A stretch of DNA of 64,000 nt from a virus, in IMG/VR virus record IMGVR_UViG_3300020027_000005, positions 12,483 to 76,482 of that record. One strand, written 5' to 3'. The notes beneath the pieces are model-generated. The model worked only from the letters and a program-made list of their open reading frames with translations, was not told the origin of the DNA and searched no databases. Below are positions 27,916 through 60,122 of this stretch, one piece after another. Position 1 is the first letter of the stretch. Each line of letters starts with the position of its first letter. The translations under genes were made by a program, and so were the position numbers.

Positions 27916-28507
27916 TGGCAGCCTTGAAGTCGATGAACTGTTGTTCGGTGAGGGCTACTGCCGGTGGGTGCAGAGGAAGTGTTCTCGGGTAGAGACCCAG
28001 TAGGGTATCGACCCACGGATGAAGACCCTCGATGCACCTGGTTCCTGACTCGTCGAACCACTCTTTGAGAACGACGACGAACCTGTAGGTCGGCTCTCCG
28101 GGAAGCCCGCGAAGCTCGACGTGGAGAATGGGCTGTTCTCCTACCGCCATGGCTCCGTTCACCAGTTTCGACCAGATTTTTGGAGTGACGGTAAAGTGCC
28201 CTCTACTTGTTTGCTTTGCTTCCACTCGCCACACTCCGAATGTCCTTCCGTCTCCATCCAGCCCTAAGGCACCAGAAGCTGGGGTAGCTCTGGCACCGAC
28301 CAAGGCGTTGGCGCGCTTTTCTTGAGCACGCCAACTACTCTTGTTCCGAAGATGGATGGGTTGAGGCCGACGGAAGCGACTGCAATCTTCCTTATGCCGG
28401 ATGTTGTCCGACACCTGGACTTTGTCTCGTCCAATGCTCTTGCCGATGAAGAGGATTCCGCCTTCACCGCATTCTCGACAAGTCACTTTTCGTGGGCCTT
28501 TCTCCAC
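27890..28507 (-). CDS. PD-(D/E)XK nuclease (Holliday junction resolvase-like) with N-terminal Zn finger
   Basis: CREC..H...C; QEKRA..ATPASGA..DGD...VEAKQT. Confidence 0.7.
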   Translation of the reverse strand: MEKGPRKVTCRECGEGGILFIGKSIGRDKVQVSDNIRHKEDCSRFRRPQPIHLRNKSSWRAQEKRANALVGARATPASGALGLDGDGRTFGVWRVEAKQTSRGHFTVTPKIWSKLVNGAMAVGEQPILHVELRGLPGEPTYRFVVVLKEWFDESGTRCIEGLHPWVDTLLGLYPRTLPLHPPAVALTEQQFIDFKAANESSGSDL

Positions 28508-29616
28508 TACCGGGTCAACTTCTGGGCCAGGAGTCCGACCAGTTCCTCCGCCAGAGATTCATTTCCCTGGAGAGTGAGGATGGCGTTTTCCTTTCCCTGA
28601 CCCAGGCGAATGTCCCCGTAGTTGTACCAGGAGCCGCTCTTCTGGATGAGGCCGTACTGGCTTCCGTAGTCGAGGAGTTCCCCGAACATCGAGATGCCCT
28701 TTCCCCAGATGATGTCCACTTCGCAGGACCTGAAGGGAGGGGCGACCTTGTTCTTCACGACGTTCAGTCGAGTCCGACTTCCGAACTTCTCGTCGTTGGC
28801 CGAGAGGGCTCCGAGCTTCGTCGTCTCAATCCGAATCGAGGCGTAAAAAGGCAGAGCCTTCCCACCGCTCGTCGTCTTCGGGCTCCCGAAGGTGACTCCG
28901 ATTTTCTCCCGCATCTGGTTCAGGAAGATGACGACCGCGTTGCTCCTCGCGATCTTCGGGGTCATGATCCGAAGCGCCTGACCCATGAGACGAGCCTGGC
29001 CACCTGGATTGTGGTCCCCGATCTCTCCGTCGAGCTCCTTCTGTGGAACCAACGCTGCGACGGAGTCGATGACGACCAAGTCCACCTTCCCCGTCTCGAC
29101 GAGGTGGGAGACGGTCTGAAGGGCTTGTTCACCGTTGTCCGGTTGATAGCCGAGGGTCGAATCCAGATCGACTCCGAGGGCCTGGGCGTAGTTCGGGTCC
29201 AGGGCGTGCTCGACATCCACGAACGCTGCAATACCACCCGCCTTCTGACACTGATGAACGCAGTGCAAGGCCAGGGTGGTTTTTCCCGAGGCGTAGTCCC
29301 CGTAGATCTCGACGATTCGCCCACGAGGAAGTCCACCAACTCCGAGAGCGATGTCGAGGCCGAAAGAACCGGTGTGGATGACTCCACGGACCTCTTCTCT
29401 GAGTCCGTGAACTCCTCGCAGGGTGGACATCTGGATGCCCTTCCCGAAGGTCCTCCCGCAGATCTCATCGAGAGCGGCCAAACGCTCTTCTGGAGTCTTG
29501 GCCTCCGTCATCATGTTCCGTTGTTCGGCGAGGTTCGCATGCTCGTTCGTCTTCGGAATCATCGGATTCTCGGCGACGAGCTTCGGACCGAGGGTGTCCC
29601 GACTCTTGCGGCCCAC
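28507..29616 (-). CDS. recA: RecA recombinase
   Basis: TGSFGLDIALGVGGLPRGRIVEIYGDYASGKTT; IDSVAAL; QARLM; GGKALPFYASIR; KNKVAPPF. Confidence 0.97.
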   Translation of the reverse strand: MGRKSRDTLGPKLVAENPMIPKTNEHANLAEQRNMMTEAKTPEERLAALDEICGRTFGKGIQMSTLRGVHGLREEVRGVIHTGSFGLDIALGVGGLPRGRIVEIYGDYASGKTTLALHCVHQCQKAGGIAAFVDVEHALDPNYAQALGVDLDSTLGYQPDNGEQALQTVSHLVETGKVDLVVIDSVAALVPQKELDGEIGDHNPGGQARLMGQALRIMTPKIARSNAVVIFLNQMREKIGVTFGSPKTTSGGKALPFYASIRIETTKLGALSANDEKFGSRTRLNVVKNKVAPPFRSCEVDIIWGKGISMFGELLDYGSQYGLIQKSGSWYNYGDIRLGQGKENAILTLQGNESLAEELVGLLAQKLTR

Positions 29617-29790
29617 CTACTGTTCCTCCCGAAAGAGTTCCTGCTGGCAGTCCTCCTTCTGGACGATTTTGTCCTCCTGTTGGCCCGTGTTGACCACGGC
29701 CCTCTCGGTTCTCGACTTGTCGACTACCTTGGAGGCTTCCACGTGAGCCTTCTTCTCCTTCGGCGTGTTCACCACTGCGCGCTTTTCCAC
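29617..29790 (-). CDS. 57-aa small protein, missing from the ORF track
   Basis: AGGAG RBS, GTG start; MEKRAVVNT...TERAVVNT...FREEQ*; fills the polA-recA gap. Confidence 0.55.
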   Translation of the reverse strand: MEKRAVVNTPKEKKAHVEASKVVDKSRTERAVVNTGQQEDKIVQKEDCQQELFREEQ

Positions 29791-29798
29791 GGTTTCTC

Positions 29799-31715
29799 CT
29801 ACTTTTCGGCCCAGTTTTTCGCAATCTTCGGTTTCACCACGAGAGGGACTCGCAGCGGAGGGTTGAGGGGCGTCGACATGTAGTACTCCATGATCTCCCT
29901 AGCCTCTGATGCCGTTTCAATCGGCCCTTCTCCGATGAGCTCGTCATGGACCTGGTGGATGAGAGCCCACCCCAAGTCTGCGAATCGTCCATCTGCGGCG
30001 AGGTTGATCATGGCTCGTTTCACGATGTCGGCAGCAGACCCCTGGATCGGGGCATTCTGTGCTTGTCGAAGTGCATGGCCGATTTCCCTGCTTCGGCCAT
30101 ACTTGGCTTTCGAAAGTCTGCGGAAGCGCCCGCAGATCGTTTGAACATATCCCCGACTCTTCGCCTCGTAGTGTTTCTCGGCGATCCAGCGACGAACACC
30201 AGGGTAGGTGTTGAGGTATTGGTTGATGAAGGTCTGGGCTTCGTCTTGAGAGACGTACCGACCGAGCTCTTCGGAGAGCTGTGCGGCCAGACCAACCTTT
30301 GACTCGCCATAGAGAATCCCGAACCCGGTCTTCTTCATTGCGGTTCGTTTCTCTTCTATCCAGCTCTCTCCCCGTTCACGAGCTGCGACACATTCGTCGT
30401 AGTCAGCGTTTTCGATGGTGCTGACCGTGAAGATGTGCATGTCCCGGCCATCGAGGATGGCATTGATCATCGTCTCGTCGCCAGACATGTCGGCGATGAT
30501 TCGCATCTCCAGCTGCGAGTAGTCCCCGATGATGAAGGCGTTCCCCTCCTCGGGGAGGAAGGCTTCCCGAATTCGGTAGGGGTCGTCCTTCGTGATTTGA
30601 GGAACGTTCTGCAGGTTCGGGTTCGAACTCCCGAGTCGGCCCGTAGTCTTTGTCGGGCTGTAGTCGGTGTGGACCCGGCCATCGAGAAAGAGGAACTTCA
30701 GGATTCCGTCGACGTAGGTGCCACGAAGTTTGCTGCACTTCTTGTACACCATGACGAGCTTGGCGACGGGATCCTGGGTCTTTCCGAGAGCCAGATGGGA
30801 AAAGAGCGTCTCGTTGACCTGCGGGACCTGCTTCTTTTCGGTGAAGGAGAGCGGGGTGTACTTCTTCACGTTGAAGAAGTACTCGCCCATCTGGTCGGTC
30901 GAGTTCGGGTTGATGGGGTAGCCGACGAGCTTGTTGATCTCGAAAGCCGTTTCTTCCATCTTCTCTTCGAGGACTGCTCTCACCTTCTTGAGATGGTCGA
31001 CGTTGACCCGCATTCCGCGGCGTTCCATTCCCCAGAGTGTCTTGAGCTGCGGTTCCTCGGTGTCCCAGTACATCTGGGTCAGCGTGTAGGGATCGTTCTC
31101 GTCGTCTGCTGGCCAGACTTCGATCTTGTCGAGAAGTCCGAACAACTTCATGGCCAGGATTCGCGTGGCCCATGGGTCGAGGGACGAGTAGTCGAGGTAC
31201 TTCTGCCACGCAGGGTGTCCGGGTTTAATGGCCCGCGGGTCCTCGCTTCCGAACAGCTCCTTGTACTCGTTCATCGGGTAGTCGAAGTAGTCGGCCATGC
31301 AGTCTTTGAGGCCGTGCCGGTTTTCTCGGCGGTCTTCATCTACAAGGAAGTCGAGAACCACGGTGTCGATCCAGGGACCGCCAACTTTGATGCCCGAGGA
31401 GTTCATGATCCTGTGCACGTCGAACTTTGCGAAGGTCAGCGCCTTCGGTACATCCGATTCCAGAACAGGGCGGAAATAGTTGAGGTTCACCCTCGGGACG
31501 AGGTATCTGACATCGTCCCGAGGGCTGAGCCCCATGACCACCACTTCGTCGGTCATGTTGAAGCGCTTGGACCCGTCCTCGTTCTTGAAGAGACCCAAGG
31601 TCTCGGTGTCGACGCCCAGCATCACCTCTGCATCCAGGCAGTCCCGGATGGCAGTTTCGATGAGCTGGGGTGTGTCGACGTAGATCGGAGGAGGGGCGAA
31701 GGTCTGAAATCTCAT
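29799..31715 (-). CDS. polA: Family A DNA polymerase (3'-5' exonuclease + polymerase, no 5'-3' exonuclease)
   Basis: ExoI VDTET; TGRLGSSNPNLQN; motif A DYSQLEMR; motif B KKTGFGILYG; motif C QVHDEL. Confidence 0.95.
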   Translation of the reverse strand: MRFQTFAPPPIYVDTPQLIETAIRDCLDAEVMLGVDTETLGLFKNEDGSKRFNMTDEVVVMGLSPRDDVRYLVPRVNLNYFRPVLESDVPKALTFAKFDVHRIMNSSGIKVGGPWIDTVVLDFLVDEDRRENRHGLKDCMADYFDYPMNEYKELFGSEDPRAIKPGHPAWQKYLDYSSLDPWATRILAMKLFGLLDKIEVWPADDENDPYTLTQMYWDTEEPQLKTLWGMERRGMRVNVDHLKKVRAVLEEKMEETAFEINKLVGYPINPNSTDQMGEYFFNVKKYTPLSFTEKKQVPQVNETLFSHLALGKTQDPVAKLVMVYKKCSKLRGTYVDGILKFLFLDGRVHTDYSPTKTTGRLGSSNPNLQNVPQITKDDPYRIREAFLPEEGNAFIIGDYSQLEMRIIADMSGDETMINAILDGRDMHIFTVSTIENADYDECVAARERGESWIEEKRTAMKKTGFGILYGESKVGLAAQLSEELGRYVSQDEAQTFINQYLNTYPGVRRWIAEKHYEAKSRGYVQTICGRFRRLSKAKYGRSREIGHALRQAQNAPIQGSAADIVKRAMINLAADGRFADLGWALIHQVHDELIGEGPIETASEAREIMEYYMSTPLNPPLRVPLVVKPKIAKNWAEK

Positions 31716-32821
31716 CCAGGTCTCCTAGGCCCTTTCATGTGTTCTCGAATCCAGGCAATGGCTTCCTTCTCGCTGGCCCCGTACACGAAGCCCTCGAGTT
31801 CCAGGTCCTGGAGTTCTCGTTCCATCCCGTTCAGCGTGACCTCTCGGAGGGACCACTCCTTGGGTTCCATCTGAAAGAGGTCGACGTAGCCCTGCAGTTG
31901 TCGGAGCAGTTCGTTCTTCCGACCCTGAAGGCTTCCTTCTTTCCCCTCGCGGTGCAGCGTGTCGATCTCTACGTCGGACAAGCCGTGCCATCGGAGAATG
32001 GCGACGCCCTCGACGAGGCTGTTGCTGGCGTTTCTCTGAACCAGCGTCGTGGCAGTTGACCGACTTCCGGGCGTGTAGCTCGTGTATTTTCGAAGCGCCT
32101 GAAGACCAGACTCTGGAGCTTCCCAGCTCACCTGGGCCACGTCGAGGTACAGCTCCCGATCCTTATGGGTGTGGACCCCGATCTTCAGAAGCGGGACCAA
32201 CATTCCGAACACATCAGGTTCGTTGTCCCTCTGCATCATGCCGAGGAAATCCGGACGCCCGACATTCGTAGGACAGGTGATCCCGAACTCCATTTCGTAA
32301 AAGGCCTTGAAGTGCTTGGCGTTGACCCCGAGGATTCTTCCGTCGAGATCGAAGGTGTAGATGTGGGCCGTCGGTTCAGGAGCGAATCGACTCGAGGTAG
32401 GATCCGGTCTCTGGTACTGGACTCTCGCAGCTCCTCCTCCGAAGAGATCGGTCAGGTTGTAGAGCGGCTCTTCCCAGATGTTCTGGTTCTCGGACAGCAG
32501 CTCTCGGACAGTCTCTGCGGTGAACCTCTGGTACATGGCGTACTTGTCGGCTGACAGGTAGATGTCGAGCGCCCTGGCTCCACGGTCTGGGACGAACTTC
32601 TTGGCCTCGGCGAAGACTTCTTTGGCGTTGATTACTCGCCAGTCGACGAGAGTTCCGTCGGGGGCATCGTTCAAGATTTCGAGAACGTCACTCGTGAAGT
32701 AGTGATCAGCTCCGGAGGTGACGATGAGCCACTTTCCGGAGCTGATGTAGATCGTGTCTTCGTCGACGAGCATGACTGCGTCACCCAGCGCAGCCATGTG
32801 CTCCGAAGAGATGTTCAACAT
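31712..32821 (-). CDS. Hypothetical protein
   Basis: 369-aa ORF, GGAG RBS, ATGA coupling to polA. Confidence 0.7.
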   Translation of the reverse strand: MLNISSEHMAALGDAVMLVDEDTIYISSGKWLIVTSGADHYFTSDVLEILNDAPDGTLVDWRVINAKEVFAEAKKFVPDRGARALDIYLSADKYAMYQRFTAETVRELLSENQNIWEEPLYNLTDLFGGGAARVQYQRPDPTSSRFAPEPTAHIYTFDLDGRILGVNAKHFKAFYEMEFGITCPTNVGRPDFLGMMQRDNEPDVFGMLVPLLKIGVHTHKDRELYLDVAQVSWEAPESGLQALRKYTSYTPGSRSTATTLVQRNASNSLVEGVAILRWHGLSDVEIDTLHREGKEGSLQGRKNELLRQLQGYVDLFQMEPKEWSLREVTLNGMERELQDLELEGFVYGASEKEAIAWIREHMKGPRRPG

Positions 32822-32835: not shown

Positions 32836-32880
32836 AGGTAGGCGGAAGGGTGAACTTCCCTTTCCGCCTACCTTATGCGC
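32836..32880 (-). promoter_or_regulatory. GCGCATAAG motif followed by a 12-bp-stem leader hairpin
   Basis: + strand cttatgc at 32872-32878; inverted repeat 32836-32847/32862-32873. Confidence 0.6.
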
Positions 32881-32889
32881 GGAACCGAA

Positions 32890-34089
32890 CTACACTCGAC
32901 GGAAGCTGCGAGCTCCGCCACCGCCCTTGAAGCCACCCGCAGGGCCCGTTCCCCAGGGGTTCACCTTCTTGATGGCCTCGGCCTGGGCGTCGAGCACGGC
33001 GTTGACGTACTCCTCGTCTTCCTTGTGGTCGTTCGGGTTGATCCACTCCGGACGGAAGGTCCAGGAGAAGTCGATCGGAGCGAGGATCTTCTTGATTTCC
33101 TCGTCTTCGAATCCCCAGGCTTGCAGCGTCTCTTCGGCGGTCTCGAAGATCTCGCAGTTCGTGTCGAAGGTGAAGACCTTGTCCTCGTACTTCTTCTTGT
33201 CCCAGGTCTCCTTCATCTCGCCCGAGCACATCACCCGTACGGACTTGTCGAAGATCGAGCCGGGCTTGGCCTCGTGTTCTCCTCCCCGACAGGCGAAGAC
33301 CTGGGTCGGGCTGTCCTTGCTGGTGCAGTTCGGGCAGACCACGTCCTTCTTGGACTTGGCCTCGATCTCCTTCGTCGGCATCCGCCGGACCTTCTCCGGG
33401 TCCTCGAGGTTGTGACCGCACTCACGGCAGTTGAGCTCGATCACGTAGGCCTCTTGTTCGCAGAGAGACCCGTCTTCGTGCTGGAAGATGCAGATCTTTT
33501 TGAGGCGCTGATGTGCAGCGAAGATCTGCCCGAGGTGGTCGTCCTTCAGCTCCCACCGGCGAGCACCGCCGAAGAGCCGGGCCTTGGTCGCCTCGTCTTC
33601 GTCCGCACACTGCTCACAGCGGTCGGGGTCTCCGTCGGGCCCTTCGACGTTGCAGACGATCACGTCCTTCCCTTCCCCGGTGCTGGACGCGCTGATGTGG
33701 TAGTACCGGAAGTCGGTCACCTGCATCATCGACCGGGACTGCTGGTTCAGCCGAGACTGGACCTTCTTGTACTGCTCCTTCTTGCTCCGAGCCTCCTCGA
33801 GCTTCCGCTGCTCGTTGGTCTTGTGGTCGGTGTCGTAGTGGCAGTAGCAGCACTTCCCGCTGAAGAGGGCCATCTCGGCCGTACAGGTCTTCGGCCCCGT
33901 TCCTTCGGGCCAGTGGTACTTCCGAACGTAGGGCTGTTCCCCGGTCGGGTGGAACCGGCAGAGGGCCTGCTCGTCGACGGAGAGGCGGAACTCGCTCATC
34001 TCCCAGGGCTTGAGGCCCTTCTGCTTCCGAGCGGCGCGCTCCTTCTCACGGTTCAGTACGTGGGCACGGAATCCATCGAATTCACTCAC
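32890..34089 (-). CDS. Putative single-stranded DNA-binding protein (gp32-like) with multiple Zn motifs
   Basis: Position between primase and polA; CRF..., H..C..CCYC, CEQC, CREC, CPNC; strongly biased codons; GAGGT RBS before GTG at 34089. Confidence 0.55.
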   Translation of the reverse strand: MSEFDGFRAHVLNREKERAARKQKGLKPWEMSEFRLSVDEQALCRFHPTGEQPYVRKYHWPEGTGPKTCTAEMALFSGKCCYCHYDTDHKTNEQRKLEEARSKKEQYKKVQSRLNQQSRSMMQVTDFRYYHISASSTGEGKDVIVCNVEGPDGDPDRCEQCADEDEATKARLFGGARRWELKDDHLGQIFAAHQRLKKICIFQHEDGSLCEQEAYVIELNCRECGHNLEDPEKVRRMPTKEIEAKSKKDVVCPNCTSKDSPTQVFACRGGEHEAKPGSIFDKSVRVMCSGEMKETWDKKKYEDKVFTFDTNCEIFETAEETLQAWGFEDEEIKKILAPIDFSWTFRPEWINPNDHKEDEEYVNAVLDAQAEAIKKVNPWGTGPAGGFKGGGGARSFRRV

Positions 34090-34098: not shown

Positions 34099-34147
34099 AC
34101 TTAGGATCATTTGAATTACGTAGGGTCTTTGGAATTACTTAGGATCA
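34099..34147. repeat. AT-rich 19-bp tandem repeat (about 2.5 copies)
   Basis: ACTTAGGATCATTTGAATT / ACGTAGGGTCTTTGGAATT / ACTTAGGATCA. Confidence 0.7.
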
Positions 34148-35146
34148 AAGGCGAAGTTGAATTGGGCTTTGGGCCTCGTCGATCATATCCTGAACTTCTT
34201 TTTCGTTCAGGGAATCTGGCTGCGTATTGATGGTCCGAGACTTGTACTGGCAGATCAGGGCCTTCCCTGCTCGGCCTAGAGCCTCCGCAATCTGTAGCGC
34301 AGCACAGCGCCCAAAACTGTCCGGGAATCCTTTTCCAGCTTGATGGTCGAGCATCACGTAGAAGGGACCTGCCAATCTTTCCAGCAGGGTTCTCTGCGCC
34401 CGTGAAAGGGATGAACCTTGAAGCGCGACCGTGTGAGGGAATCCGAGCTGTCTCAACCAGAGACACGCTTTGTACCCTTCAACCAGAATCAGAGGCGAAC
34501 AACCGGCCTCATCCTTAAAGAACCGTTCCGGGTACACGGTGTGAAACCCGTAGAGGTGTCGACGGTTGTCCGGGACGTACTTCTCAACGACCCCGTAGAA
34601 CTCTCCGCCTTTCCGCGCGTCGTACACCTTGTAGCGAGGACTCATCCAGTTCTCGATTGCCCTCCCGTTGATTGCCGCCAGCCGGCCCGCGAAATCGCGA
34701 ACCGGAAAAGTGATCCTCTGGCGTTGCGCGTCGTACCCTACTTCATGGGCTCGGAGGATTTCTTCTGAAAAGCCCTTTCGTAGAAGTTGAGCAGGCGGCC
34801 CCCCGTAAACTCCCAGGATGTATTCGGGAAGGAATACGGGCTCCTTGGCCAGCTCGGCCCTTATGCGCAGAAAGTCTGGAACCGCGAGCTTCGGCTTGAC
34901 GTTCTGAACCGTCCTGTCGATTTGTGTTGGCGACAGGCCGAGTTTTCGTAGCAGCGTGACGAAGGACCCGCTCTCACCGCAGTCTCGGTGAAAACAGATC
35001 CAGGCTCCGGATTCCAGACTGATGCTGAAAGTTCGGTCGTCCCCCGAGTGGAAGGGACAGACGGCCTTCAGGTTGCTCTCTCCCATGGGCCGTACTTCCG
35101 AGAAGTACAGGTCCATGATTTCTTGAACCCGGACCTCGAGGCTCAC
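34145..35146 (-). CDS. DNA primase (CHC2 zinc finger + TOPRIM)
   Basis: CPFH...CFHRDCG; RITFPVRD; RYK; HLYG; ILVEGY. Confidence 0.85.
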   Translation of the reverse strand: MSLEVRVQEIMDLYFSEVRPMGESNLKAVCPFHSGDDRTFSISLESGAWICFHRDCGESGSFVTLLRKLGLSPTQIDRTVQNVKPKLAVPDFLRIRAELAKEPVFLPEYILGVYGGPPAQLLRKGFSEEILRAHEVGYDAQRQRITFPVRDFAGRLAAINGRAIENWMSPRYKVYDARKGGEFYGVVEKYVPDNRRHLYGFHTVYPERFFKDEAGCSPLILVEGYKACLWLRQLGFPHTVALQGSSLSRAQRTLLERLAGPFYVMLDHQAGKGFPDSFGRCAALQIAEALGRAGKALICQYKSRTINTQPDSLNEKEVQDMIDEAQSPIQLRL

Positions 35147-35827: not shown

Positions 35828-37183
35828 CTAGGTTCTGCGCATACCGTTCTTTGCGGCCAGCTTTCCGATTTTCGACTTGATGTCCTCGGAGGACACCCCC
35901 GCCGCGTCTGCCGCTTCTTTCGTCTTTCGAGCGGCGACGTTTACGCTCTCCATGTCGTCGATCCATGAAGTGTCGGAGGTCATGAAGGTCCCGAAGTTGG
36001 CATCGAGCCTGGCGTCGATGGTCCACGACAAGAACTTCTGAACGTTCCGACCAGCATTGATGATGAGGCCCATTCTTCCGGCCACGTCATCCACGATGAC
36101 TCGAATCGCCATGTCTGCTCTTCTTACGATGTGGTCCGAGTGTCCGATCTCTTCTGTCCCCTGACCCTTGAGCTTGATCCCTTCTCGATTCGCGTGGCCG
36201 CACGCAACGATGGGAATCTTCTTCTTGGGGTTCTGGGCGATCTTCTTCACCAGGTCTGCGGTTCGGGCGACGTAGGCGTCTTGTTTCGTGTTGAACTTGT
36301 CGCCCATCTCGTCGTCGGCGATGGCTTTCATGTAGTCGAGAATGACTACATCAGGTTGAATCTCCTCAATCTTCGCTCGAAGACCAGCGATCCCCCCACC
36401 TGCTTCCGAGACGATGATGTTCTTCTGCTCGTACAGCGAGTCCATCGCCATTTCGAGCGTGTACATTCCGTCCGTTGAGACGTGGCCTTTCGTCATGTCT
36501 GGGTAGGACAGGCCGGCGCGCATCGGGTAAAGGCGCCAGGCAATCTCCTCGCGCGACATCTCTCTGGAGTTGAAGAGGACTCGAAGTCCGCAGGATTCCC
36601 AGAAGAGAGCCAGGTAGAGAAGAAGGAAGGTCTTTCGAGATTTTTCGCGACCGTAGATGTAGATGAAGTTCCCGGGCATCAAGCCCATGGAGTTGTTGTT
36701 CAAGTACTCCCACGGCCAGGCTAGCCCCAGAAGACCTCCGGAACGTTGAAGGAGGTGCAACTGGTTGAGGACTTCTCTTTTGTCCTCGCCTGCGATGAGG
36801 TCAGTGTTTCCCTGGAAGAGTTCGAGACTCAACCCCTCTGCGATCCGGAGCATCTCTGCTTTCGCGACCCAGGGATTGATGTTGTTGGCCTCGGCGATCC
36901 TTTTCAGGGCCTCGTTCACCTCTTCGTGGAGATACCGAGTTCTGACCTCGTCGATGATGGACTCGATGTTGTTCGTCGGCGGGACGTGGACGTAGGAGGG
37001 GACCATCCCTTTGAAGAAGGTCACATCCGGAACCTCATGGAACCGGTTGTACCTGTCCATGATGATGTCCCAGTACGTCTGGGCTTCCTGACCTAGCATC
37101 TTGGCTTTGAAGCCCAATTTCAGTGGGACACTAAGATCTCTGCTCTCCAGTACGGATGCGACCAGACTCAGGTCGTAGTTCAC
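35828..37183 (-). CDS. DnaB-like replicative helicase
   Basis: Variant Walker A GREKSRKT; SREM; VILDY; HANR; D...RRAD. Confidence 0.8.
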   Translation of the reverse strand: MNYDLSLVASVLESRDLSVPLKLGFKAKMLGQEAQTYWDIIMDRYNRFHEVPDVTFFKGMVPSYVHVPPTNNIESIIDEVRTRYLHEEVNEALKRIAEANNINPWVAKAEMLRIAEGLSLELFQGNTDLIAGEDKREVLNQLHLLQRSGGLLGLAWPWEYLNNNSMGLMPGNFIYIYGREKSRKTFLLLYLALFWESCGLRVLFNSREMSREEIAWRLYPMRAGLSYPDMTKGHVSTDGMYTLEMAMDSLYEQKNIIVSEAGGGIAGLRAKIEEIQPDVVILDYMKAIADDEMGDKFNTKQDAYVARTADLVKKIAQNPKKKIPIVACGHANREGIKLKGQGTEEIGHSDHIVRRADMAIRVIVDDVAGRMGLIINAGRNVQKFLSWTIDARLDANFGTFMTSDTSWIDDMESVNVAARKTKEAADAAGVSSEDIKSKIGKLAAKNGMRRT

Positions 37184-37203
37184 TGGCTCTCCGAGAAAGA
37201 CCG

Positions 37204-37273
37204 CCCCCCGCTCCGCAACTAACGGAGCGGGGGGATGCGGGGTTTGAGGACAAGGGGTTCGGCTAGCTTATGC
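37204..37273 (-). promoter_or_regulatory. GCATAAG motif (37267-37273) and downstream 12-bp GC hairpin upstream of the helicase
   Basis: ccccccgctccg / cggagcgggggg at 37204-37234. Confidence 0.55.
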
Positions 37274-37307
37274 CGTCAATCTCTTCAGGGTCAACGGCGA
37301 GAGATGG

Positions 37308-41008: not shown

Positions 41009-41050
41009 GATTGCTTCACCTCTCTAAAGGCGTGATACTTGGGTTGTCAT

Positions 41051-41063
41051 CTACCTTATGCGC
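41051..41063 (-). promoter_or_regulatory. Candidate phage promoter GCGCATAAGGTAG
   Basis: 13-bp identity with 32868-32880; sits at the divergence point heading the minus-strand operon. Confidence 0.65.
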
Positions 41064-51100: not shown

Positions 51101-51298
51101 CTTCCGAATGAGATGCAGGAGGATTGGATCGCTCGACTCAACTTCCAGAACCTCTCTCGAACTCTGACCCAGGCTTCTCGAGAGGGGTGGCACGCCAACA
51201 TCCACGGCTTCAATCCCATTCCGGCCGCAGCACAAGGTGCAGAGTTCAACAGAGCAGAGCGGAAACTCAAGCCGGGGGAACATAAAGGCCAGTACTGA
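45128..51298 (+). CDS. Single-chain fused beta-beta' DNA-directed RNA polymerase (bacterial type, 2056 aa)
   Basis: Beta motifs: GFLDPIHTPEG, IPFLQNNQGNRAM, GYNFEDGIVISE, GDKLVGRHGNKG, NPLGVPGRINLGQILE, YILKLKH. Beta' motifs: VPILPPIFRP, DFSARSII, NADFDGD (49253-49273), HGARKG, CQAEHGVCRHCMG, GEPSTQLSLSAFHTGG. Confidence 0.97.
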   Translation: MSNLSPEMQFESLKSSLSGTLKGMFPIETRGGNSIVLEEVEFKDEKGSGDLREQQKALREAKSWSIPVYGTFSTKNKNGTETDRKRVLMMHLPRTTDRFGYIVDGNEYQILNQFRLKSGVYHRMAPDGDALAEFNLANSDQFANGKSFKLRLVPKTAVFYVDHRNSSVPLYPLLKSVGVTDEDLEKAWGKEILERNQAKGAEARSFGALRRAVGAELPGVDGSELFGKLLAKTKLLPETTEKTLGKAYASVTPELLAQSTKQLLELSRGARAEDDKTSLEYQGMYSANDLLSGHLQRKAGLIKRKIQTNLEKKKGVRLIVPTDTFDQALRSFFSTSLVSQPEQTNPLEMLSGALKTTIMGEQGGIKSSFAISENAKLVNPSHLGFLDPIHTPEGEKTGVSLALPLGAGKRGNEIVSTFWNAKTKKRQEISAGEALHATVAFPDQYVQKGSGMSPVAPKVKATKDGNIVYVSHREVDYVIPSPRAVFGVSSNLIPFLQNNQGNRAMTAARQQEQAVPLLYREEPLVQVKTDGKATFEEILGESSARNSPVDGEILRVERDAIIIKDSKGEKHEIQFYKDFALKGNTLYDSDVKVKAGDKVKKGDLLADTTFTKNGKLALGTNLRTAYMAFNGYNFEDGIVISEDAAKKLTSLHVHQKDIPFDTDTVLDKKKFLSQYQYGFGKEQLENVGEDGVIKVGSRVKEGDPLLLALRKPNESQLRKQIMAFRRGRPDKFRDGSLAWDHEAPGIVTDVVKRGDQVVVYVKTEEPAQVGDKLVGRHGNKGIITRVVPQAEMPYSTDAKGEKQHVDILMNPLGVPGRINLGQILETAAGKIATKTGKTYEVKNFEHGKDYLTDIKADLKKNGLSDKEALFDPTTGKHFEQEVMTGNQYILKLKHMATKKISARSGSGGEGSFYDVNHAPSSGAPHGGQAMDPLGLYALLAHGARENISEMYTYKSDKNDAFWDAIREGAPIPPPKTPFVYDKFLKYMNALRVDVKKEGNSLQLMPFTEQQVLEMSSGELKEPSLVVRGKDLKPLPGGLFDEKLTGGKEGTRWTHFKLAEPMPNPMFEEAIKKLTGLSDNQFRSHIRGDVEVNGKKGGEAVEELLKRINVKKLREDLESKIGKAKGAGRDKLHQQLRIVKALDEAKLSPTVYMMRSVPILPPIFRPVSAKPDGSLSSDDLNGLYKDIGAVNESLTLLKSSDIPQSIVAPTRMELYDGLRAMTGLGGSLTREYRGILDIISGKTRKGESAGEGSSKGGFFQKSVMKRRQDFSARSIITPEPRMGIDEIGLPQEIAWTMYQPFIEKELIRQGYKPPDAIDEVRKRTLVAEKALFRAVEDRPVLLKRDPVLHKFNVMAFKPRLVKGKAIEIHPLVTGGFNADFDGDTMSVFLPVTSPAVKEAQNLYPSNNLFSPTTGAVMYTPGHEALLGTYLLSLPGKKTGKRFKNTEDAQSALRKGELKKTDIVRIGGHETTLGRLEIEAKLPAWLQETGKKPVSEMRIYDNKTTKGLLMQVAKRDHLKYGEIANHLKDIGNENSTRTGFSIGLSDFDVVNKVGRDKIIAAAEKQQVKINSSKLSVQKKEEKVVEVLTKAKDQLEDLYNAGLKKDPTNIYKMMISGSRVSPGQLKQIVSSPALVSDSKNRMVPYIIPRSYSEGMDMASYWTTMHGARKGALQKTQEVSKPGALSKLLVNSTINQLVTEEDCRAGDGITMSVDNHDVADRYLAAPARFGGKRIRAGELITPELLAQARKAQVKTLTVRSPLRCQAEHGVCRHCMGLTEGGKSYDIGTNIGVIAAQAVGEPSTQLSLSAFHTGGTVGSRGSQAVSTFGRLSQLLTVPRNIPNEGALALHAGKVTSIEDAPQGGQYVYINKTQHYAPATQKLQIKKFDTVKAGDELTDGVTDPKKLLALRGVRDTQDYLTRSMMEVLSEVAPVKQRNVEVVVRSMTDIATVEDPGGHPDWTSGDVRPVSIIAAWNAKHRGKGKPVKYSTLVKGVDVLPNEMQEDWIARLNFQNLSRTLTQASREGWHANIHGFNPIPAAAQGAEFNRAERKLKPGEHKGQY

Positions 51299-51307: not shown

Positions 51308-52222
51308 ATGCCCCCTCGTCCGTCCCTGTTCATCGATCCGAACACGGCTTCCGCAGCTGCAGCCAAGGCCCTCAAACCTACAGATCCGCACGGTGCTGCC
51401 TGCATCGAGGTCATCTCGAGGAGGCCCGTAGCAACGTGGCTCGGGTCGTGGCTCACCGATGTCACGAAGACTGTCGACGACAGGATCGACGCAGCCGGAA
51501 GCGCCCTCTGCACTTTCGTGGTCTACAACATTCCCCAGAAAGACTGTGGGAACTTCTCAAGCGCACACGCAGCTGCGAACGAGTACGAGTACTCGAAGTG
51601 GATCGCGAAGATCGCTCTGGGGATTGCAGGTCGACCCTGCGTCGTTGTCATCGAACCCGACGGGTTGTCGGTCACTCACTGTCTCGACGGAGCGAAGCTT
51701 CAGGCTCGGATGGGTGCCATCGCTTCGGCTGCGAGTGTTCTCGCAGGTGCAGGAGCCCGGGTCTTCATCGACGCCGGCTGCTACAACTGGATTCCAGCTT
51801 CCACGATGGCTTCTCGTCTCGCCTCTTCTGGCATCCAGGCGGCCATTGCTTCGAAGGGTGGTTTCGCTTTGAATGTCTCGCACTTCGAGACGACCGAGAA
51901 CAGCCACACCTACGCAGCCGAGCTTCGAACTCTCATTCCGCTCGCCAAGTACATCGTCGATACGAGTCGAAACGGTCTCGGCCCTTCGGACGTAATGACC
52001 CCGGACGGAGAGGAGCCGGAGTGGTGCAATCCTCCCGGAAGAGCTTTGGGCCTCGCACCGACGCTCGTGACCCGAGAGGGAGGCTGTTACGCCTACATGT
52101 GGGTGAAAACCCCCGGCAGCTCAGATGGATCGAGGCCTGCTGGGGCTCCTGAGGCCGGGGACTACTGGTCTGAGTACGCTATCGGCTTGGTGGAGCGTAG
52201 CCACCTTGCCCCGAAATCGTGA
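51308..52222 (+). CDS. Glycoside hydrolase family 6 (endoglucanase-like), no signal peptide
   Basis: VYNIPQKDC; IEPD; IDAG; NVS; VDTSRNG; WCNPPGRALG; WVKTPGSSDG. Confidence 0.9.
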   Translation: MPPRPSLFIDPNTASAAAAKALKPTDPHGAACIEVISRRPVATWLGSWLTDVTKTVDDRIDAAGSALCTFVVYNIPQKDCGNFSSAHAAANEYEYSKWIAKIALGIAGRPCVVVIEPDGLSVTHCLDGAKLQARMGAIASAASVLAGAGARVFIDAGCYNWIPASTMASRLASSGIQAAIASKGGFALNVSHFETTENSHTYAAELRTLIPLAKYIVDTSRNGLGPSDVMTPDGEEPEWCNPPGRALGLAPTLVTREGGCYAYMWVKTPGSSDGSRPAGAPEAGDYWSEYAIGLVERSHLAPKS

Positions 52223-52999: not shown

Positions 53000-53515
53000 T
53001 CAGTCGTCTGCGTGTGTTGCCGTGGCCTCGTCCTCGCTGCTCTCGTCTTCCTCATCGTCGTCGTCATCCACCTCACCGGTGGCGGAGATCGCGATTGGCG
53101 GAAGACTGTTCGTGGCCCGGTCTGGTGTGTTGACGAGCTCCGGGTGCATCCTCATGATGCCGATGAGCTCGAGTGCCAGCGGTCGCTGCGTCCGGTGCGA
53201 AGGGGCGGACTGAGTCGTCAGAAACCAGATAGTTCTGAGCAGGTCGGCTTCCTTAGCTGGCAGGTCACGAGTTTCGAGCGTGTAGCCGCTCTGTCTGTTG
53301 TCCTTTGGCCCTGGGAAGAGGTTGAGAGCAATGGACCCCCCGTCCTTGTTCTCCAACGTCATCATCATCGGGCACCCGATGAACTCCACGAAGTACTCAT
53401 CCCGCCGGTTCGGTCCGAAGCCGCCGGCGGTGAGGTTCGCGGAGAAGCATCCTGGTTTTTGCACCTTCAGAAGGAGCATCCTCAGGATGCGGTTTGCATT
53501 GTCAAGGTCATGCAT
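53000..53515 (-). CDS. Hypothetical protein with acidic tail
   Basis: GGAGGT RBS; GCATGAG variant motif at 53533-53539. Confidence 0.65.
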   Translation of the reverse strand: MHDLDNANRILRMLLLKVQKPGCFSANLTAGGFGPNRRDEYFVEFIGCPMMMTLENKDGGSIALNLFPGPKDNRQSGYTLETRDLPAKEADLLRTIWFLTTQSAPSHRTQRPLALELIGIMRMHPELVNTPDRATNSLPPIAISATGEVDDDDDEEDESSEDEATATHADD

Positions 53516-53605
53516 TCCGTACCTCCATTCTCCTCATGCGTGGAATAGAGGCTGGCTTTCAGTCGAGACCGCCCGAGTTAGCTTCCTTGGAGCTGCAAGG
53601 AGCTG

Positions 53606-54427
53606 TTGATGAGGATGTTCCATCTCGAGCGGATCGAGGATGAGTCCAAGGTGTCTGGAACGGGGAGGGTGGCGGAAGGCCTCGAATTCACGGACGGCTC
53701 GTGTACGATGCGCTGGCTCACGGCACACCGGTCGACCACGGTCTACAGCTCGATGGCGGACCTGGTCCACGTCCACGGACACGGTGGAAAGACGAAAGTC
53801 GTCTACGAAGAGCCCGAGAGCCTGAAGAGAGTTCCGAAGCCTCACCTGTCTCTTGGCTTCGAAGGTGCAGATGCCGAGCAGGAGTCGATGGCTCATGGTT
53901 GTGGTCCCGCACTTCCTGGAGCGAGGGCTGCTTACGACCAGGTGAAGGAGCTCTGGGCTCCGTACGGTTGGACGGCCATGGCCTGCTGGGAGTTGCAGGG
54001 TGGGGTGTACCTCGAGCTGAAGAGCCCGATGAGGTTCCTCTGGACCGAGCAGAAAGAGTCTGGTCCTCTGATTCACTTCGAGCAGTATCGAGCGACCTTC
54101 GGTGTCACGAAAGAGAAGGGCGTTGTGGCGACCATCGATTACCCGACGTTCGAACGTAGAGACGAAAGAATGGCGGTCTTCGTGGACGGAGTCAGGGGAA
54201 AGCTCACCCGTTCGCAGGCCTACCACACCGGATCTTCTCGCGAAGCGGTCCCCCCGCAGTTCGGAGGGAGTCAAACTTCTCCGACGATTCCGCCTCTCTC
54301 GGATCTGCATAGTCCGGAGATGGCCCCTGACCGAGTCGCGGAGCCCGCGACCACCTCCTGGCCGTGCGAGTGTCCGGTCACGGATTTCAAGGGCGGCATC
54401 TGCGTGAAGTGTGGTGGAAGGGAGTAG
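53606..54427 (+). CDS. Hypothetical phage protein
   Basis: AAGGAG RBS; N-terminal SGTGRVAEG.EF.DG....RW...HGHGG domain; C-terminal CEC..CVKC. Confidence 0.65.
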   Translation: MMRMFHLERIEDESKVSGTGRVAEGLEFTDGSCTMRWLTAHRSTTVYSSMADLVHVHGHGGKTKVVYEEPESLKRVPKPHLSLGFEGADAEQESMAHGCGPALPGARAAYDQVKELWAPYGWTAMACWELQGGVYLELKSPMRFLWTEQKESGPLIHFEQYRATFGVTKEKGVVATIDYPTFERRDERMAVFVDGVRGKLTRSQAYHTGSSREAVPPQFGGSQTSPTIPPLSDLHSPEMAPDRVAEPATTSWPCECPVTDFKGGICVKCGGRE

Positions 54428-54429
54428 TC

Positions 54430-54469
54430 GAAGGCGAAGAAGCTGGGCCGGGAAACCGGCCCGTGCTTC
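54430..54469. terminator. GAAA-loop hairpin between convergent genes, preceded by GAAGGCGAA
   Basis: gggccgg-gaaa-ccggccc with outer gaagc/gcttc. Confidence 0.6.
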
Positions 54470-54824
54470 AAACAAACCAACTTCTCTCACTCTCGAAAGT
54501 GAAGTCGGCTTCCTCTTCTTCTCCACTGAACTCGAATTCCCGAATCCCATCTGCGTGGGACTCTTGGACTGCTCCCGAGTCGCGCCCATGGCGGGGACGT
54601 CGATGACGCGTGAGATGTTTTTGTCTCGAACACGCCTGTACGTCCCGGGATCCCTCTGAGGGGACCTGTCCACGGGTCATCCGGACTCTGATGGTTGCAG
54701 TGAGCCACTTCAACGTTGTTGCTGGATCACGAAGCGCATCGAGCCACACCTCTCTGAGGTGCTTGGCCTTCGCGAAAGCTGTCCGGGAGTTCGGTTCACT
54801 GTCTACGGCCAGAATCTCATTCAT
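54468..54824 (-). CDS. Hypothetical protein
   Basis: ORF fills the gap; acidic C-terminus. Confidence 0.45.
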   Translation of the reverse strand: MNEILAVDSEPNSRTAFAKAKHLREVWLDALRDPATTLKWLTATIRVRMTRGQVPSEGSRDVQACSRQKHLTRHRRPRHGRDSGAVQESHADGIREFEFSGEEEEADFTFESERSWFV

Positions 54825-54982
54825 GTCACCAACCTTCAGAGTTTGGTCTCCAGCAGCTCGACTTTGAGCTGTGGAATCGTAGGGGATTTGAGGAGGGGCC
54901 TACATTATGTAGGTAGTCTGCTGTCTTTGGCGGGTGGGATCAGGATGGAAGTGCTCTCTTCCATCCTAGTCCTTATTCGTCC

Positions 54983-55267
54983 TTAGTAGTTCGGATTGCC
55001 GGGTCGCCCGCGCCTGCTCTTATCGTAGCTGTAGGCGGGCTGCGGGTAGACCGGAGGACGGGGGAAGGTCTCAGGTCGATCCGTCTTCGGGTTCTTGACG
55101 GCCTCAAGTGCGTGCCGGGAGAACGGCTCGTGGTAGTCCTGCCCCTGCAGGCGCTTTCGAACTACGGGGATGTGTCCTGCGGGCGGGTCGGGAAGTCGGA
55201 GTTCTTCTACGACCCAGGTCCCGTGCTCGTCTTTGAACGTGTCGATGAAAGTGTACGTATCAGGCAC
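54983..55267 (-). CDS. Hypothetical protein
   Basis: GAGGT RBS before GTG at 55267, after two leader hairpins. Confidence 0.5.
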   Translation of the reverse strand: MPDTYTFIDTFKDEHGTWVVEELRLPDPPAGHIPVVRKRLQGQDYHEPFSRHALEAVKNPKTDRPETFPRPPVYPQPAYSYDKSRRGRPGNPNY

Positions 55268-55351
55268 TCGGACCTCTAGGAGGCCTCCGGAACTTCTCAT
55301 TCCGGAGGAGGTTTCAGAAATCAGAAGGGACAAATCCTCTTCTTGAGTTTC

Positions 55352-55630
55352 TTATGCCTGGTCCTCGGTCACCTTTTCGAGACGAGCCTTGTGGGTCTGA
55401 ACAACTTTTCGGCTGTTGCTCTGACACTTCTGAAGAGGCATGGCCCCACAACGGGGACACTGGACTGCGAGTGCAAGTCTCCTCCTCTCTCGAAAGACCG
55501 AGGCCTCCTCTTCCGAGCGTTTCTCCATCTCCAAGTCCGTGCATCTCCCGCGGTGAACGTAGGTGCCGATCTGTTGAACGAAGTCGCTCTCCAGTGCCTT
55601 CTTTCCACAGGAGACGCAGGTCTTGCTCAC
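55352..55630 (-). CDS. Zinc-finger protein
   Basis: CVSC..H...C and CPRCGA....KC..H..R. Confidence 0.6.
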   Translation of the reverse strand: MSKTCVSCGKKALESDFVQQIGTYVHRGRCTDLEMEKRSEEEASVFRERRRLALAVQCPRCGAMPLQKCQSNSRKVVQTHKARLEKVTEDQA

Positions 55631-55986
55631 GCTGCGGTCCGTTTCCGAACCTCGGCGATCCAGAGTCTCCGGAGCCACGTCCAGGCGATGTGGTCGGGCA
55701 TCCGACCCGTGAACGTCGTGTGGAACCCGAGTTCATCCTCGAGCGGTGTGGTTCTGTACTGGTCGTCCTTGTTTCGTAGTCCGACTGCGACAGCTCCGAG
55801 GTCGTACTGTCCGTAGAGCTGTCCGAGGATGCAGGCGTGGCCGTGCTGCATCAAGAGCTTGCTGATGTTGATCTTTGTGGCCCATTCTGGATGTTTCTCG
55901 TCCAGGAATGCGGCTCCCTTCGCGACTGGCTCGAGCCAGTACTCTTCTTCATTCGGCTGGAAGATCCAGACGGGTTGTACGGTCAT
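55627..55986 (-). CDS. Hypothetical phage protein
   Basis: VAKGAAFLDEKHPEW..KI....L.M....CILGQLYG motif. Confidence 0.65.
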   Translation of the reverse strand: MTVQPVWIFQPNEEEYWLEPVAKGAAFLDEKHPEWATKINISKLLMQHGHACILGQLYGQYDLGAVAVGLRNKDDQYRTTPLEDELGFHTTFTGRMPDHIAWTWLRRLWIAEVRKRTAA

Positions 55987-56647: not shown

Positions 56648-56654
56648 CTTCCCC

Positions 56655-56937: not shown

Positions 56938-57867
56938 CTAGGGCTTCTTAGACGAGGACGGGGGGTTCATCGATCGGAGAGCCACCCTCTGGGCCGGGGG
57001 AGTCGTCTTCATAATCGTCCTGTCCAGGGCGACGCGAAGGTCCCGATGACACCCAAAGCCACGCTCGATCTTCGAGATGGCCCGGTGGTTGACCCGAATC
57101 GCCGACCCCATCGCCTTCAACTCGGTGTTGCACTCGTCGGCCACCGAGTTTTGGTTCACGTTCTTGTCCATCCGCGTCTGCCGAAGCAGCTTCCCGAACG
57201 CGATGTCCTCCTGGCGACGCTTGTCGCCCTGGGCCGAGGTCAGCGTGCGCGGAACCGGCCGCTGACGAAGCTCGTCGAGGACTGTTGACGTTCGGGGTTG
57301 GACCGGGGGGACGGGGGTGTTCCCGTTGTTGGCTGGGGGGACGGTTTTCACCGTGGGCGGCTTTGTCACCGTCGTCTTGGCGCTTGCGAAAGCGGCTGCG
57401 ATGGCGGTGTCGGGAGCGCCTGCAGACTTCGCTGCAGCCTTCCGAATCTCTTCGTCCCGGTGTTCGATCTCGGCCTTGAACCTGTCCCGGTCTTTCGTGA
57501 CCGAGAGGAGCTCTGCCCTGAGGCCGCTGACCTTCTCTTCGACCTCTTCGGAGAGATCGAGGAACTGCTTGTTGTAGTCGACCACGAGCTTCTCACGCTC
57601 GGCCTTGAGCGTTGCGATCTCGTTCTTGAGCCTGTTGGCCTCCACACCCGAGACCTCCACCTCCGCCAGAGGGGGCAGGCCGAGGTCCATGTGTGCCTGG
57701 TTCAAGGTCTCGAGGTTGAGCAGGGCGAGATCACGAAGAGTCGTGGCCTGTTTCCGCTTCACCTCTCCGAAGGCCTCCTTCTCTCTGGCGAAAGCAATCT
57801 GCTCCGCCTCGATGTCGGCCGCGGCTTGACGTAGTAGGTCGAAGCTCGTCTTGGTGGGGTCGCTCAC
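56938..57867 (-). CDS. Coiled-coil protein with C-terminal XRE-like HTH
   Basis: FGKLLRQTRMDKNVNQNSVADEC...NHRAISKIERG. Confidence 0.7.
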   Translation of the reverse strand: MSDPTKTSFDLLRQAAADIEAEQIAFAREKEAFGEVKRKQATTLRDLALLNLETLNQAHMDLGLPPLAEVEVSGVEANRLKNEIATLKAEREKLVVDYNKQFLDLSEEVEEKVSGLRAELLSVTKDRDRFKAEIEHRDEEIRKAAAKSAGAPDTAIAAAFASAKTTVTKPPTVKTVPPANNGNTPVPPVQPRTSTVLDELRQRPVPRTLTSAQGDKRRQEDIAFGKLLRQTRMDKNVNQNSVADECNTELKAMGSAIRVNHRAISKIERGFGCHRDLRVALDRTIMKTTPPAQRVALRSMNPPSSSKKP

Positions 57868-57958
57868 ATGTCACTCCATGGGAAATGTCGACGAACTTCT
57901 TGTTCTTCGACACTTGTCTTATTCCCCAGGAAGATGGCCAATTCCACTCCTGGGAAGG

Positions 57959-59137: not shown

Positions 59138-59351
59138 CTTTGGGGTCCGTGAAAGTGAGTGTGAACGGGTTGTCGATGGCGATCAGGAAGTCGGGGAGCT
59201 CGGGAGGTTCCTCCAGTTCTTCTTCTGTATGCGCCTCTTCCTCCCAGAATCTTTCCAGAGCTTCGATGCACTCACGTCCTTCTTTTTCGCGTTCGACGGG
59301 ACAGATGAACCAGTGATCGTCATCATCGCTCAGTAGACGGTATCGCTGCAT
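59121..59351 (-). CDS. Small acidic hypothetical protein
   Basis: GGAGG RBS; RYRLLSDDDDHWFICP...LTFTDP. Confidence 0.65.
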   Translation of the reverse strand: MQRYRLLSDDDDHWFICPVEREKEGRECIEALERFWEEEAHTEEELEEPPELPDFLIAIDNPFTLTFTDPKDGNHP

Positions 59352-59402
59352 CTCGTCCTCCAGGGTGTCACCTCCCTTTATTCGGGAGGTGACACTTGTT
59401 CG

Positions 59403-60032
59403 CTACAGCCTGGCTGCAGCTGCCCGAGCGAAGGCCAGGGAGGCGTTCCCGTCAGCCGATGCCCAGGCCCGCTCGGAAAGCTCGAGGCTCTTCCCGGAGT
59501 CGATATGGGTGATCTTCACCACCCCCTCCAGGAAGACGGGAAGTCCCGTCTCCGTGATCTCGTAGACGAAGTCCCGTGCCGCCTCGAACAGCGCCGTAGT
59601 CTTCTGGCCTCCTCCGTAGCGCCGGATCATCGTGAAGACCCGCTCGGTCGGCATGTCCGGCTCGATGGGCCAGATCTGCATCTTCAGGATCCGTTCCTGG
59701 CTCGTCCGGGGGATGTACTCCGCGAGCTGGTTCATGAAGAAGTGAGCGAGTTGTTCGCCGCTCATTCCCATGACCTGGCGTTCGGAGATCCGCTCCACCG
59801 CGTGGCGGAGCTTGACCTCCTCGGCCCGCTCGATGGTCTTGATCATCGCGATGTCCGTCCTTTCGGCATCCTCCACGAAGTTGGAATGGTCCAGCTTGGG
59901 GGACAGGATGCTGAAGCACCAACCGAAGTTGGTAGTGGTCCGCTGCCCGCAGATCACGCTGTAGAAGTGTCTCGACCCCTCCACAGCCCGGATGTCCATG
60001 AGGTACTCGTCCTTGAACAACGTCTCGCTCAT
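59403..60032 (-). CDS. Hypothetical protein
   Basis: AGGAG RBS; downstream of GCATAAG (60098-60104) and a hairpin. Confidence 0.65.
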   Translation of the reverse strand: MSETLFKDEYLMDIRAVEGSRHFYSVICGQRTTTNFGWCFSILSPKLDHSNFVEDAERTDIAMIKTIERAEEVKLRHAVERISERQVMGMSGEQLAHFFMNQLAEYIPRTSQERILKMQIWPIEPDMPTERVFTMIRRYGGGQKTTALFEAARDFVYEITETGLPVFLEGVVKITHIDSGKSLELSERAWASADGNASLAFARAAAARL

Positions 60033-60122
60033 TTCTCTCTCTCTCCTGTTTACTCCACGGCTTTTTCTTGAAGCCGTGAATTGTCTTCGCTAGGGTTCTT
60101 ATGCTTCTTAGTTGGGGACTTT

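Follow-up and report, generated by a model that had tools for sequence, protein, structure and literature searches.

The closest described systems are phages of the 'mReC' lineage, which carry bacterial-type beta/beta' RNA polymerase (RNAP) and were described from metagenomes (Weinheimer & Aylward 2020, PMC7481178) in a paper that is silent on sigma, and the cultured Salmonella phage Arash, in whose virions mass spectrometry gave RNAP beta the top spectral count and also found beta' and sigma (PMC10585845). The Arash authors proposed a role in early transcription, with no promoter analysis (PMC10585845); the word 'promoter' occurs 0 times in either paper, and in the accessible literature we found no description of a two-part promoter built on G(C/A)ATAAG. 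This motif recurs on the minus strand of the stretch analyzed here, 64,000 nt of viral DNA comprising bases 12483–76482 of the 76,482-bp virus record IMGVR_UViG_3300020027_000005 (hereafter the window, in whose coordinates positions are given unless stated otherwise). The motif's enrichment, orientation, architecture and conservation are direct observations, as is the joint occurrence of a phage sigma and a phage polymerase. G(C/A)ATAAG is the predicted -10-like core of a two-part, sigma70-type promoter, and we give a probability of roughly two in three to the reading that this promoter serves early and replication genes and is used by the phage's own sigma-polymerase holoenzyme, probably delivered by the virion.

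The locus resembles mReC phages and Arash in its homologous polymerase (32% identity to that of Arash, 28–60% to those of metagenomic relatives), a homologous sigma, a strand-specific (G)GNATAAG motif and a portal–RNAP gene order (the portal gene upstream of the RNAP gene on the plus strand of the window is a probable assignment, offered as a lead only). It differs from Arash, whose polymerase is encoded in two genes (gp206 and gp216), in having one 2056-amino acid (aa) chain, and the motif of the window's subclade is (C)GCATAAG as opposed to GGTATAAG. In Arash, gp206 comprises beta and the N-terminal part of beta', with the rest in gp216 and other genes between them; in another relative (G009:C1:80750-88028) the polymerase is likewise not one chain, with open reading frames (ORFs) of 1817 and 697 aa.

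On the plus strand, where the minus-strand word GCATAAG reads CTTATGC, the window has eight copies (28391, 32872, 34860, 37267, 41055, 45087, 55351 and 60098) against 1.43 expected, a number reached in 0 of 100 shuffles, and CTTATGC does not occur on the minus strand (0 copies). Every one of these positions had been reported in the first-pass annotation and matches the window sequence, as do its CTTATTC at 54972 and 57918, its variant CTCATGC at 53533 and its 13-bp identity between 32868–32880 and 41051–41063. It was also right that the plus strand holds no GCATAAG and a single GAATAAG (49771, inside the RNAP gene), although the zero count is not significant alone (about 1.7 expected). A ninth copy in the 76.5-kb record lies at record positions 10305–10311 (window -2177), antisense within a plus-strand gene. 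With our curated gene set the nine copies divide into six non-coding and three coding; under the first gene call seven of the nine had fallen in the approximately 10% of the record left unannotated, in which GCATAAG was the second most enriched 7-mer (Poisson 5e-7). The top intergenic 7-mer, TCTCGAA, was rejected: it encodes Leu-Glu, is common as a codon word and recurs 63 times throughout the genes.

The intergenic enrichment that had been proposed was borne out by the codon-preserving shuffle suggested for it, which keeps protein sequences and codon usage: six copies were non-coding or at gene boundaries against 0.55 expected, with a maximum of 4 in 300 shuffles (0/300 reached 6), whereas the three coding copies, against 1.14 expected (P = 0.08), are compatible with chance. 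All six non-coding copies of CTTATGC and three one-base variants lie 17–148 nt before start codons of minus-strand genes, as first described; 41055 and 45087 stand among plus-strand genes, yet a minus-strand ORF follows directly downstream of each. The remaining minus-strand gaps of the window contain no further copies or clear variants. An explanation of the TAA in the motif as the upstream gene's stop codon was discarded, since it holds only at 55351, where the core overlaps the stop (GCA TAA) of a Zn-ribbon ORF (55352–55678), and in two spurious frames. One could still suppose that so short a word, three of whose nine copies are within genes, serves a DNA-binding regulator as its operator or is merely a chance or codon-driven word, but it is asymmetric, strictly oriented to the downstream gene, enriched in non-coding DNA and conserved at orthologous sites across dozens of distant genomes, and we consider this the least likely of the explanations weighed here.

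Read on the minus strand, the predicted promoter consists of G(C/A)AA, about 18 nt, (G)G/C-N-ATAAG, 5 nt and a pyrimidine-purine step, with the predicted start 7 nt past the last G. The nine predicted promoters of the window, named after the first plus-strand position of the core, and its two internal copies are as follows.

60091–60124, minus strand: P60098, core GCATAAG at 60098–60104, upstream GAAA at 60121–60124, predicted start 60091 (T-A), preceding gene 59403–60032.
57911–57945, minus strand: P57918, core GAATAAG at 57918–57924, upstream GGAA at 57942–57945, predicted start 57911 (T-G), preceding gene 56938–57867.
55344–55378, minus strand: P55351, core GCATAAG at 55351–55357, upstream GAAA at 55375–55378, predicted start 55344, preceding gene 54983–55267/55333.
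54965–54999, minus strand: P54972, core GAATAAG at 54972–54978, exact upstream GCAA at 54996–54999, predicted start 54965, with an uncertain ORF (54468–54824) downstream.
53526–53560, minus strand: P53533, variant core GCATGAG at 53533–53539, upstream GAAA at 53557–53560, predicted start 53526 (T-G), preceding gene 53000–53515 with an 11-nt leader and divergent from plus-strand gene 53606/53615–54427.
45080–45115, minus strand: P45087, core GCATAAG at 45087–45093, upstream GAAA at 45112–45115, predicted start 45080 (T-G), divergent from the RNAP gene and preceding a 61-aa ORF (44885–45070) that scores well on codon usage and has GGAG as its ribosome-binding site.
41048–41082, minus strand: P41055, core GCATAAG at 41055–41061 followed by GTAG, without upstream G(C/A)AA, predicted start 41048 (T-G), in a 74-bp gap divergent from plus-strand gene 41094–42179 and preceding 40592–41008 and the helicase block.
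37260–37294, minus strand: P37267, core GCATAAG at 37267–37273 followed by CTAG, preceding the DnaB-like helicase gene (35828–37183).
32865–32899, minus strand: P32872, core GCATAAG at 32872–32878 followed by GTAG, without upstream element, preceding 31712–32821 and then PolA and RecA.
34860–34866, minus strand: internal copy in the primase gene (CGC ATA AGG), without upstream element or pyrimidine-purine start.
28391–28397, minus strand: internal copy, in frame (R-H-K) in the probable 205-aa gene 27890–28507, without upstream element.

This architecture was derived from 37 non-redundant relatives, using the sites upstream of the RNAP gene anchored on A(T/C)AAG. In that alignment G-C-A-A occupies -23 to -20 (A at -21 in 32/37 and at -20 in 35/37), G is found at -3 in 35/37 and at -2 in 31/37, purine-A follows the core, and a T-G falls 6–7 nt past the last G (T at +10 in 29/37, G at +11 in 26/37). 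A matrix built from the relatives only and run over both strands of the 76-kb record placed 55351, 45087, 57918, 60098, 54972 and 28391 as its top six, all on the minus strand; P55351 is the best match in the record (19.3 bits), P45087 also scores 19.3 bits, P57918 18.4 bits, P60098 (fourth best) 17.3 bits and P54972 16.3 bits, and the internal copy at 28391 has a good core (14.3 bits). The earlier statement that no shared -35 element is evident did not hold: of the nine sites ahead of genes, five have G(C/A)AA at 18 ± 1 nt before (N)ATAAG, where the null is 1.7% per site (binomial 2e-7). A pyrimidine-purine step occupies the predicted -1/+1 in 8/9 sites of the window (null 21%, P 3e-5); the three internal copies of the record lack both the upstream block and this step. 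The first-pass reading of the motif as a -10-like promoter element of minus-strand transcription units is supported by position, orientation, enrichment and conservation in related phages.

Bacterial sigma70-family promoters have a -35 element, a 17-bp spacer and an extended -10 element, with the start 7 nt downstream. The phage promoter shares with them two blocks at a fixed spacing of about 16–19 bp (in the window and the 37 relatives), the A at -11, which is invariant, a G-rich dinucleotide at the place of the extended -10 TG and the pyrimidine-purine at the predicted -1/+1; it differs in the G, not T, that occupies -7 at every site and in GCAA/GAAA in place of TTGACA, and the phage sigma itself is a deep-branching protein of 239 aa. 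With G, never T, at -7 this is not a primary-sigma promoter, though it is of the same general kind. Could host RNAP with a host sigma, primary or alternative, nonetheless read the motif as an unusual -10? In many relatives (T)ATAAG agrees with TATAAT at five of six positions, P37267 carries a suitably spaced TTGAC (its upstream position reads TTGA), and GATAA in some relatives recalls the sigma28 -10, GCCGATAA. However, G is invariant in over 100 sites where a primary sigma needs T, the upstream block is neither TTGACA nor TAAA, canonical sigma70 consensus sites show no enrichment (2 against 3.3 expected in the small-gene block), plus-strand genes lack the motif, and the motif is conserved in phages of 34–67% GC, one of them binned with a Bacteroidales genome; use by a host sigma thus appears improbable.

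Sigma28 deserves separate mention, since a loose resemblance to it had been suggested. Likeness is seen in the A-rich upstream block, the ATAA-containing downstream block, the similar overall distance and the similar size of the sigma, and the loose likeness of the -10 stands. The consensus TAAA-N15-GCCGATAA is not matched in either block, the upstream one being GAAA/GCAA and the downstream one GCATAAG here and GGTATAAG or GGGATAAG in relatives, and the phage sigma is no FliA/WhiG member, scoring 31.8 bits on TIGR02479 (FliA/WhiG) against a cut-off of 189.6. It is equally weak on RpoD, RpoH and SigB/F/G models and lies below every curated family cut-off.

A hairpin lies at or adjoins the predicted start at five of the nine window sites: it begins at the predicted start of P54972 (54965) and P32872 (32865), 57911 is its first base at P57918, the 59-nt leader of P60098 contains one, and the 77-nt leader of P37267 has a strong one. 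Such a hairpin with CUUAUGC might stop antisense or plus-strand transcription, or with GCAUAAG might be a processing or stability signal, and a simple scan does call three sites plus-strand terminator-like (54942, 55323 and 60056). In the family, however, hairpins were not enriched at 39 sites in four genomes (33% against 23% in shifted controls) and relatives often have the motif 30–35 nt before the start codon with no hairpin; at the window sites the tail has just three U in seven bases, unlike an intrinsic terminator, and the fixed 18-nt spacing and the pyrimidine-purine step 7 nt downstream are promoter traits. We regard an element acting in RNA as very unlikely. Between P37267 and the DnaB-like gene there is a very stable hairpin (-33.8 kcal/mol) and then a T-rich stretch, which may be an attenuator or leader structure, and P37267 is enclosed by an 11-bp inverted repeat, GTTCGGCTAGC ... 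GCTAGCCGAAC (37195–37300, minus strand), with the core in the loop.

Searching with an alignment of the window polymerase and its single IMG/VR relative, we collected 61 metagenomic loci with fused polymerase (28–60% identity), and all relatives examined encode a homologous beta-beta' RNA polymerase. In at least 13 loci the strand opposite the polymerase gene bears GCATAAG at a distance of 25–33 nt, or as much as about 110 nt, from that gene's start codon, with a ribosome-binding site and then a small ORF behind it. The equivalent place is taken by GGTATAAG, GGGATAAG, GGAATAAG or GGAACAAG in most of the remaining loci, and no promoter position in the lineage is better conserved than that of P45087. 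A second orthologous site in relatives matches 41055 (L002, L003, L028, L026 and G005). The loci contain 58 strong matches, of which 46 are intergenic, and every intergenic one is opposite the RNAP gene strand. Three genomes show the same bias:

G010, complete genome of 202 kb (112 plus-strand and 109 minus-strand genes): 18 matrix matches opposite the RNAP strand, 16 of them intergenic, against 0 on it.
G005, 67% GC: nine [GC]NATAAG opposite the RNAP strand against 0 on it.
Salmonella phage Arash, cultured: 36 GGNATAAG opposite the RNAP strand against 7 on it, with reversed-word controls of 7 and 8.

In G010 the distance from match to start codon is often 32–35 nt. The sites of Arash give the logo GGTATAAG-N5-TGTA, and most of them have a start codon 26–34 nt downstream. 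Thus, in genomes with a homologous polymerase and sigma, Vibrio phage D69 excepted, the word lies opposite the RNAP/sigma strand, in non-coding DNA and before genes, and it is kept across phage GC contents of 34–67%, a spread that probably spans very different hosts. In most relatives the gene behind the RNAP-divergent promoter encodes an extremely acidic (D/E-rich) protein of 35–60 aa (equivalent small genes in L003, L004, L008–L011, L021, L022, L034, L044, L045, L047, L049, L051 and L054), and the version in the window (44885–45070, minus strand) has a basic K/R stretch and then an acidic tail; it has no match to a PHROGs family and may mimic DNA or act as a factor associated with the polymerase.

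The two proteins that would form the reading enzyme are encoded on the plus strand of the window.

45128–51298, plus strand: single-chain beta-beta' RNA polymerase of 2056 aa, with bacterial-type beta and beta' domains in one ORF, the putative catalytic core.
1013–1732, plus strand: sigma70-family factor of 239 aa with regions 2–4, among baseplate and tail genes, the putative promoter reader.

All ten IMG/VR records picked only by their sigma homologue also encode the fused polymerase, both genes are carried by Arash and by the 204-kb contig G002:C1 (the one binned with a Bacteroidales genome), and in 13/13 genomes, the window included, sigma and polymerase are on the same strand, opposite the promoter strand. 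Sigma homologues were not found within 10 kb on either side of the polymerase in 62 loci (tblastn or phmmer); they lie farther off on the same contigs. The closest homologues of the sigma from a protein search have 66–76% identity, and an identical sigma is found on an 87-kb contig. G002:C1 has in addition a second, weak sigma-like match (107479–107712, E-value 2.7e-4, in a 271-aa frame), which may be a sigma for another gene class. The polymerase retains the lid and clamp-helix segment that in bacteria is the sigma dock, with diverged sequence.

The phage sigma could instead read the motif with host core, leaving the phage polymerase to serve another class such as the plus-strand virion genes. 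To our knowledge, well-studied phage sigma factors all redirect host core, and the geometry of the promoter is that of the ordinary sigma70 family; moreover, we detected no promoter class for plus-strand genes (no shared word in 13 plus-strand gaps), so that another enzyme or factor must serve them. Against such a division of labor, sigma and fused polymerase occur together on the same strand in every record tested, both proteins are in Arash particles (PMC10585845), the clamp-helix sequence diverges from the bacterial one as would fit a private partner, and the motif is kept across the whole GC range. We therefore hold host-core use to be unlikely, if less so than reading by a host sigma, and favor the phage's own holoenzyme.

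Several points weigh against that preference. Promoter activity, the start sites, the reading enzyme and the timing are what we infer from sequence and analogy. The gene calls come from a home-made codon-score model trained on long high-GC3 ORFs, and the core of the relatives' logo is its own anchor, so that only the flanking positions are independent evidence. The upstream element is absent at three window sites (32872, 37267 and 41055). One 76.8-kb record (L063) has a sigma homologue with no RNAP match, although at a rated completeness of 56% this absence carries no information. Vibrio phage D69, a relative as distant as Arash (30% identity), lacks enrichment of GGNATAAG (11 against 13), so the word is not universal. 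Finally, proteins in the virion preparation may be carry-over, as the Arash authors note (PMC10585845).

Plus-strand virion genes extend to about 24 kb and are followed by a minus block (24.1–41.0 kb), a plus block (41.1–52.5 kb) and a second minus block (52.5–62.4 kb). The minus blocks encode RecA, family A DNA polymerase, primase, DnaB-like helicase, ResIII helicase, a PD-(D/E)XK nuclease and many small proteins, while the baseplate and tail genes, the fused RNAP ORF and the gene for the sigma70-family protein are on the plus strand; none of the minus-strand promoters stands before a plus-strand virion gene or before the genes for RNAP and sigma. The nine predicted promoters head the minus-strand units of the window, which comprise helicase, primase, DNA polymerase and RecA genes as well as small accessory genes. 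Their specificity factor would most likely be the phage sigma (1013–1732) bound to the single-chain polymerase (45128–51298), and, by analogy with Arash, which has both proteins in its particles, the enzyme would probably enter with the virion and read the promoters early in infection. A more specific proposal is that a single-chain beta-beta' core without alpha, packaged in the virion with a private sigma, reads a lineage-wide G(-7) promoter on entry and that the regulon is strictly strand-segregated, with every non-structural gene on one strand and, on the other, those of the machine itself together with those for the virion; to this we give somewhat less than even odds. G instead of the near-universal T at -7 would imply that the base pocket in sigma region 2 has been re-specified.

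The three sites that precede replication genes (32872, 37267 and 41055) share GCATAAG-(G/C)-TAG and lack G(C/A)AA, and may constitute a second promoter sub-class, perhaps with other timing or an activator. The remark that the copy in the primase gene imposes a rare ATA codon was correct: the gene reads CGC ATA AGG there, and ATA accounts for 4 of 1092 Ile codons in confident genes. The primase gene itself (34145–35146, minus strand) has a codon score (0.05 bits/codon) far below that of any other confident gene, and the 205-aa gene around the copy at 28391 is probably real. Within the minus small-gene block, the plus-strand gene 53606–54427 creates a divergent junction (53516–53614) and a convergent one (54428–54467), and a long antisense ORF (53534–54673) looks spurious. 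Directly after the RNAP gene is a glycosyl hydrolase family 6 protein (51308–52222, plus strand; Pfam 4e-44), a family unusual for a phage. Upstream of the sigma gene, a 1.35-kb stretch without a called gene (record G000:C1, approximately 11620–12970; window -861 to 491) reads as a proline/alanine-rich low-complexity protein on the plus strand. A cluster of tRNAs occupies 62558–63216 (plus strand; ARAGORN Val, Phe and Met), where Rfam also scores 62719–62783 and 62965–63054, which ARAGORN does not call; the Rfam scan returned tRNAs only, and a near-identity search in phage records gave no match. The 76.5-kb record is probably a genome fragment, because relatives of 74–110 kb are rated 43–65% complete, the complete relative is 202 kb and the contig with the identical sigma measures 87 kb.

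The system also stands apart from other phage strategies. As in phiKZ-like jumbo phages, N4 and crAss-like phages, a private, highly conserved promoter precedes early genes (PMC7598289), the gene for the polymerase lies with late or virion genes, and particles of a cultured relative (Arash) were found to contain the enzyme; however, the enzymes of those phages work without a sigma70-family factor at AT-rich words or hairpins, whereas here the geometry is of the classical sigma type and a sigma gene accompanies the polymerase. Like T4 gp55 (TATAAATA) and SPO1 gp28, the sigma-like factor here is encoded by the phage and has a -10-type word of its own, but neither T4 nor SPO1 encodes a polymerase, and an upstream element is missing from T4 late promoters.

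Phages with bacterial-type RNAP genes are widespread in metagenomes. Now that the promoter has been defined down to its upstream block, its extended -10 carrying G at -7 and its predicted start, the system can be put to a direct test, and Arash, with 36 copies of the motif and both polymerase and sigma in its particles, is available in culture. Questions thereby made answerable are whether an alpha-less single-chain beta-beta' enzyme uses sigma, how the G at -7 is read and whether infection is independent of host RNAP. The motif also provides a practical marker of early and replication transcription units in the annotation of uncultured members of the lineage.

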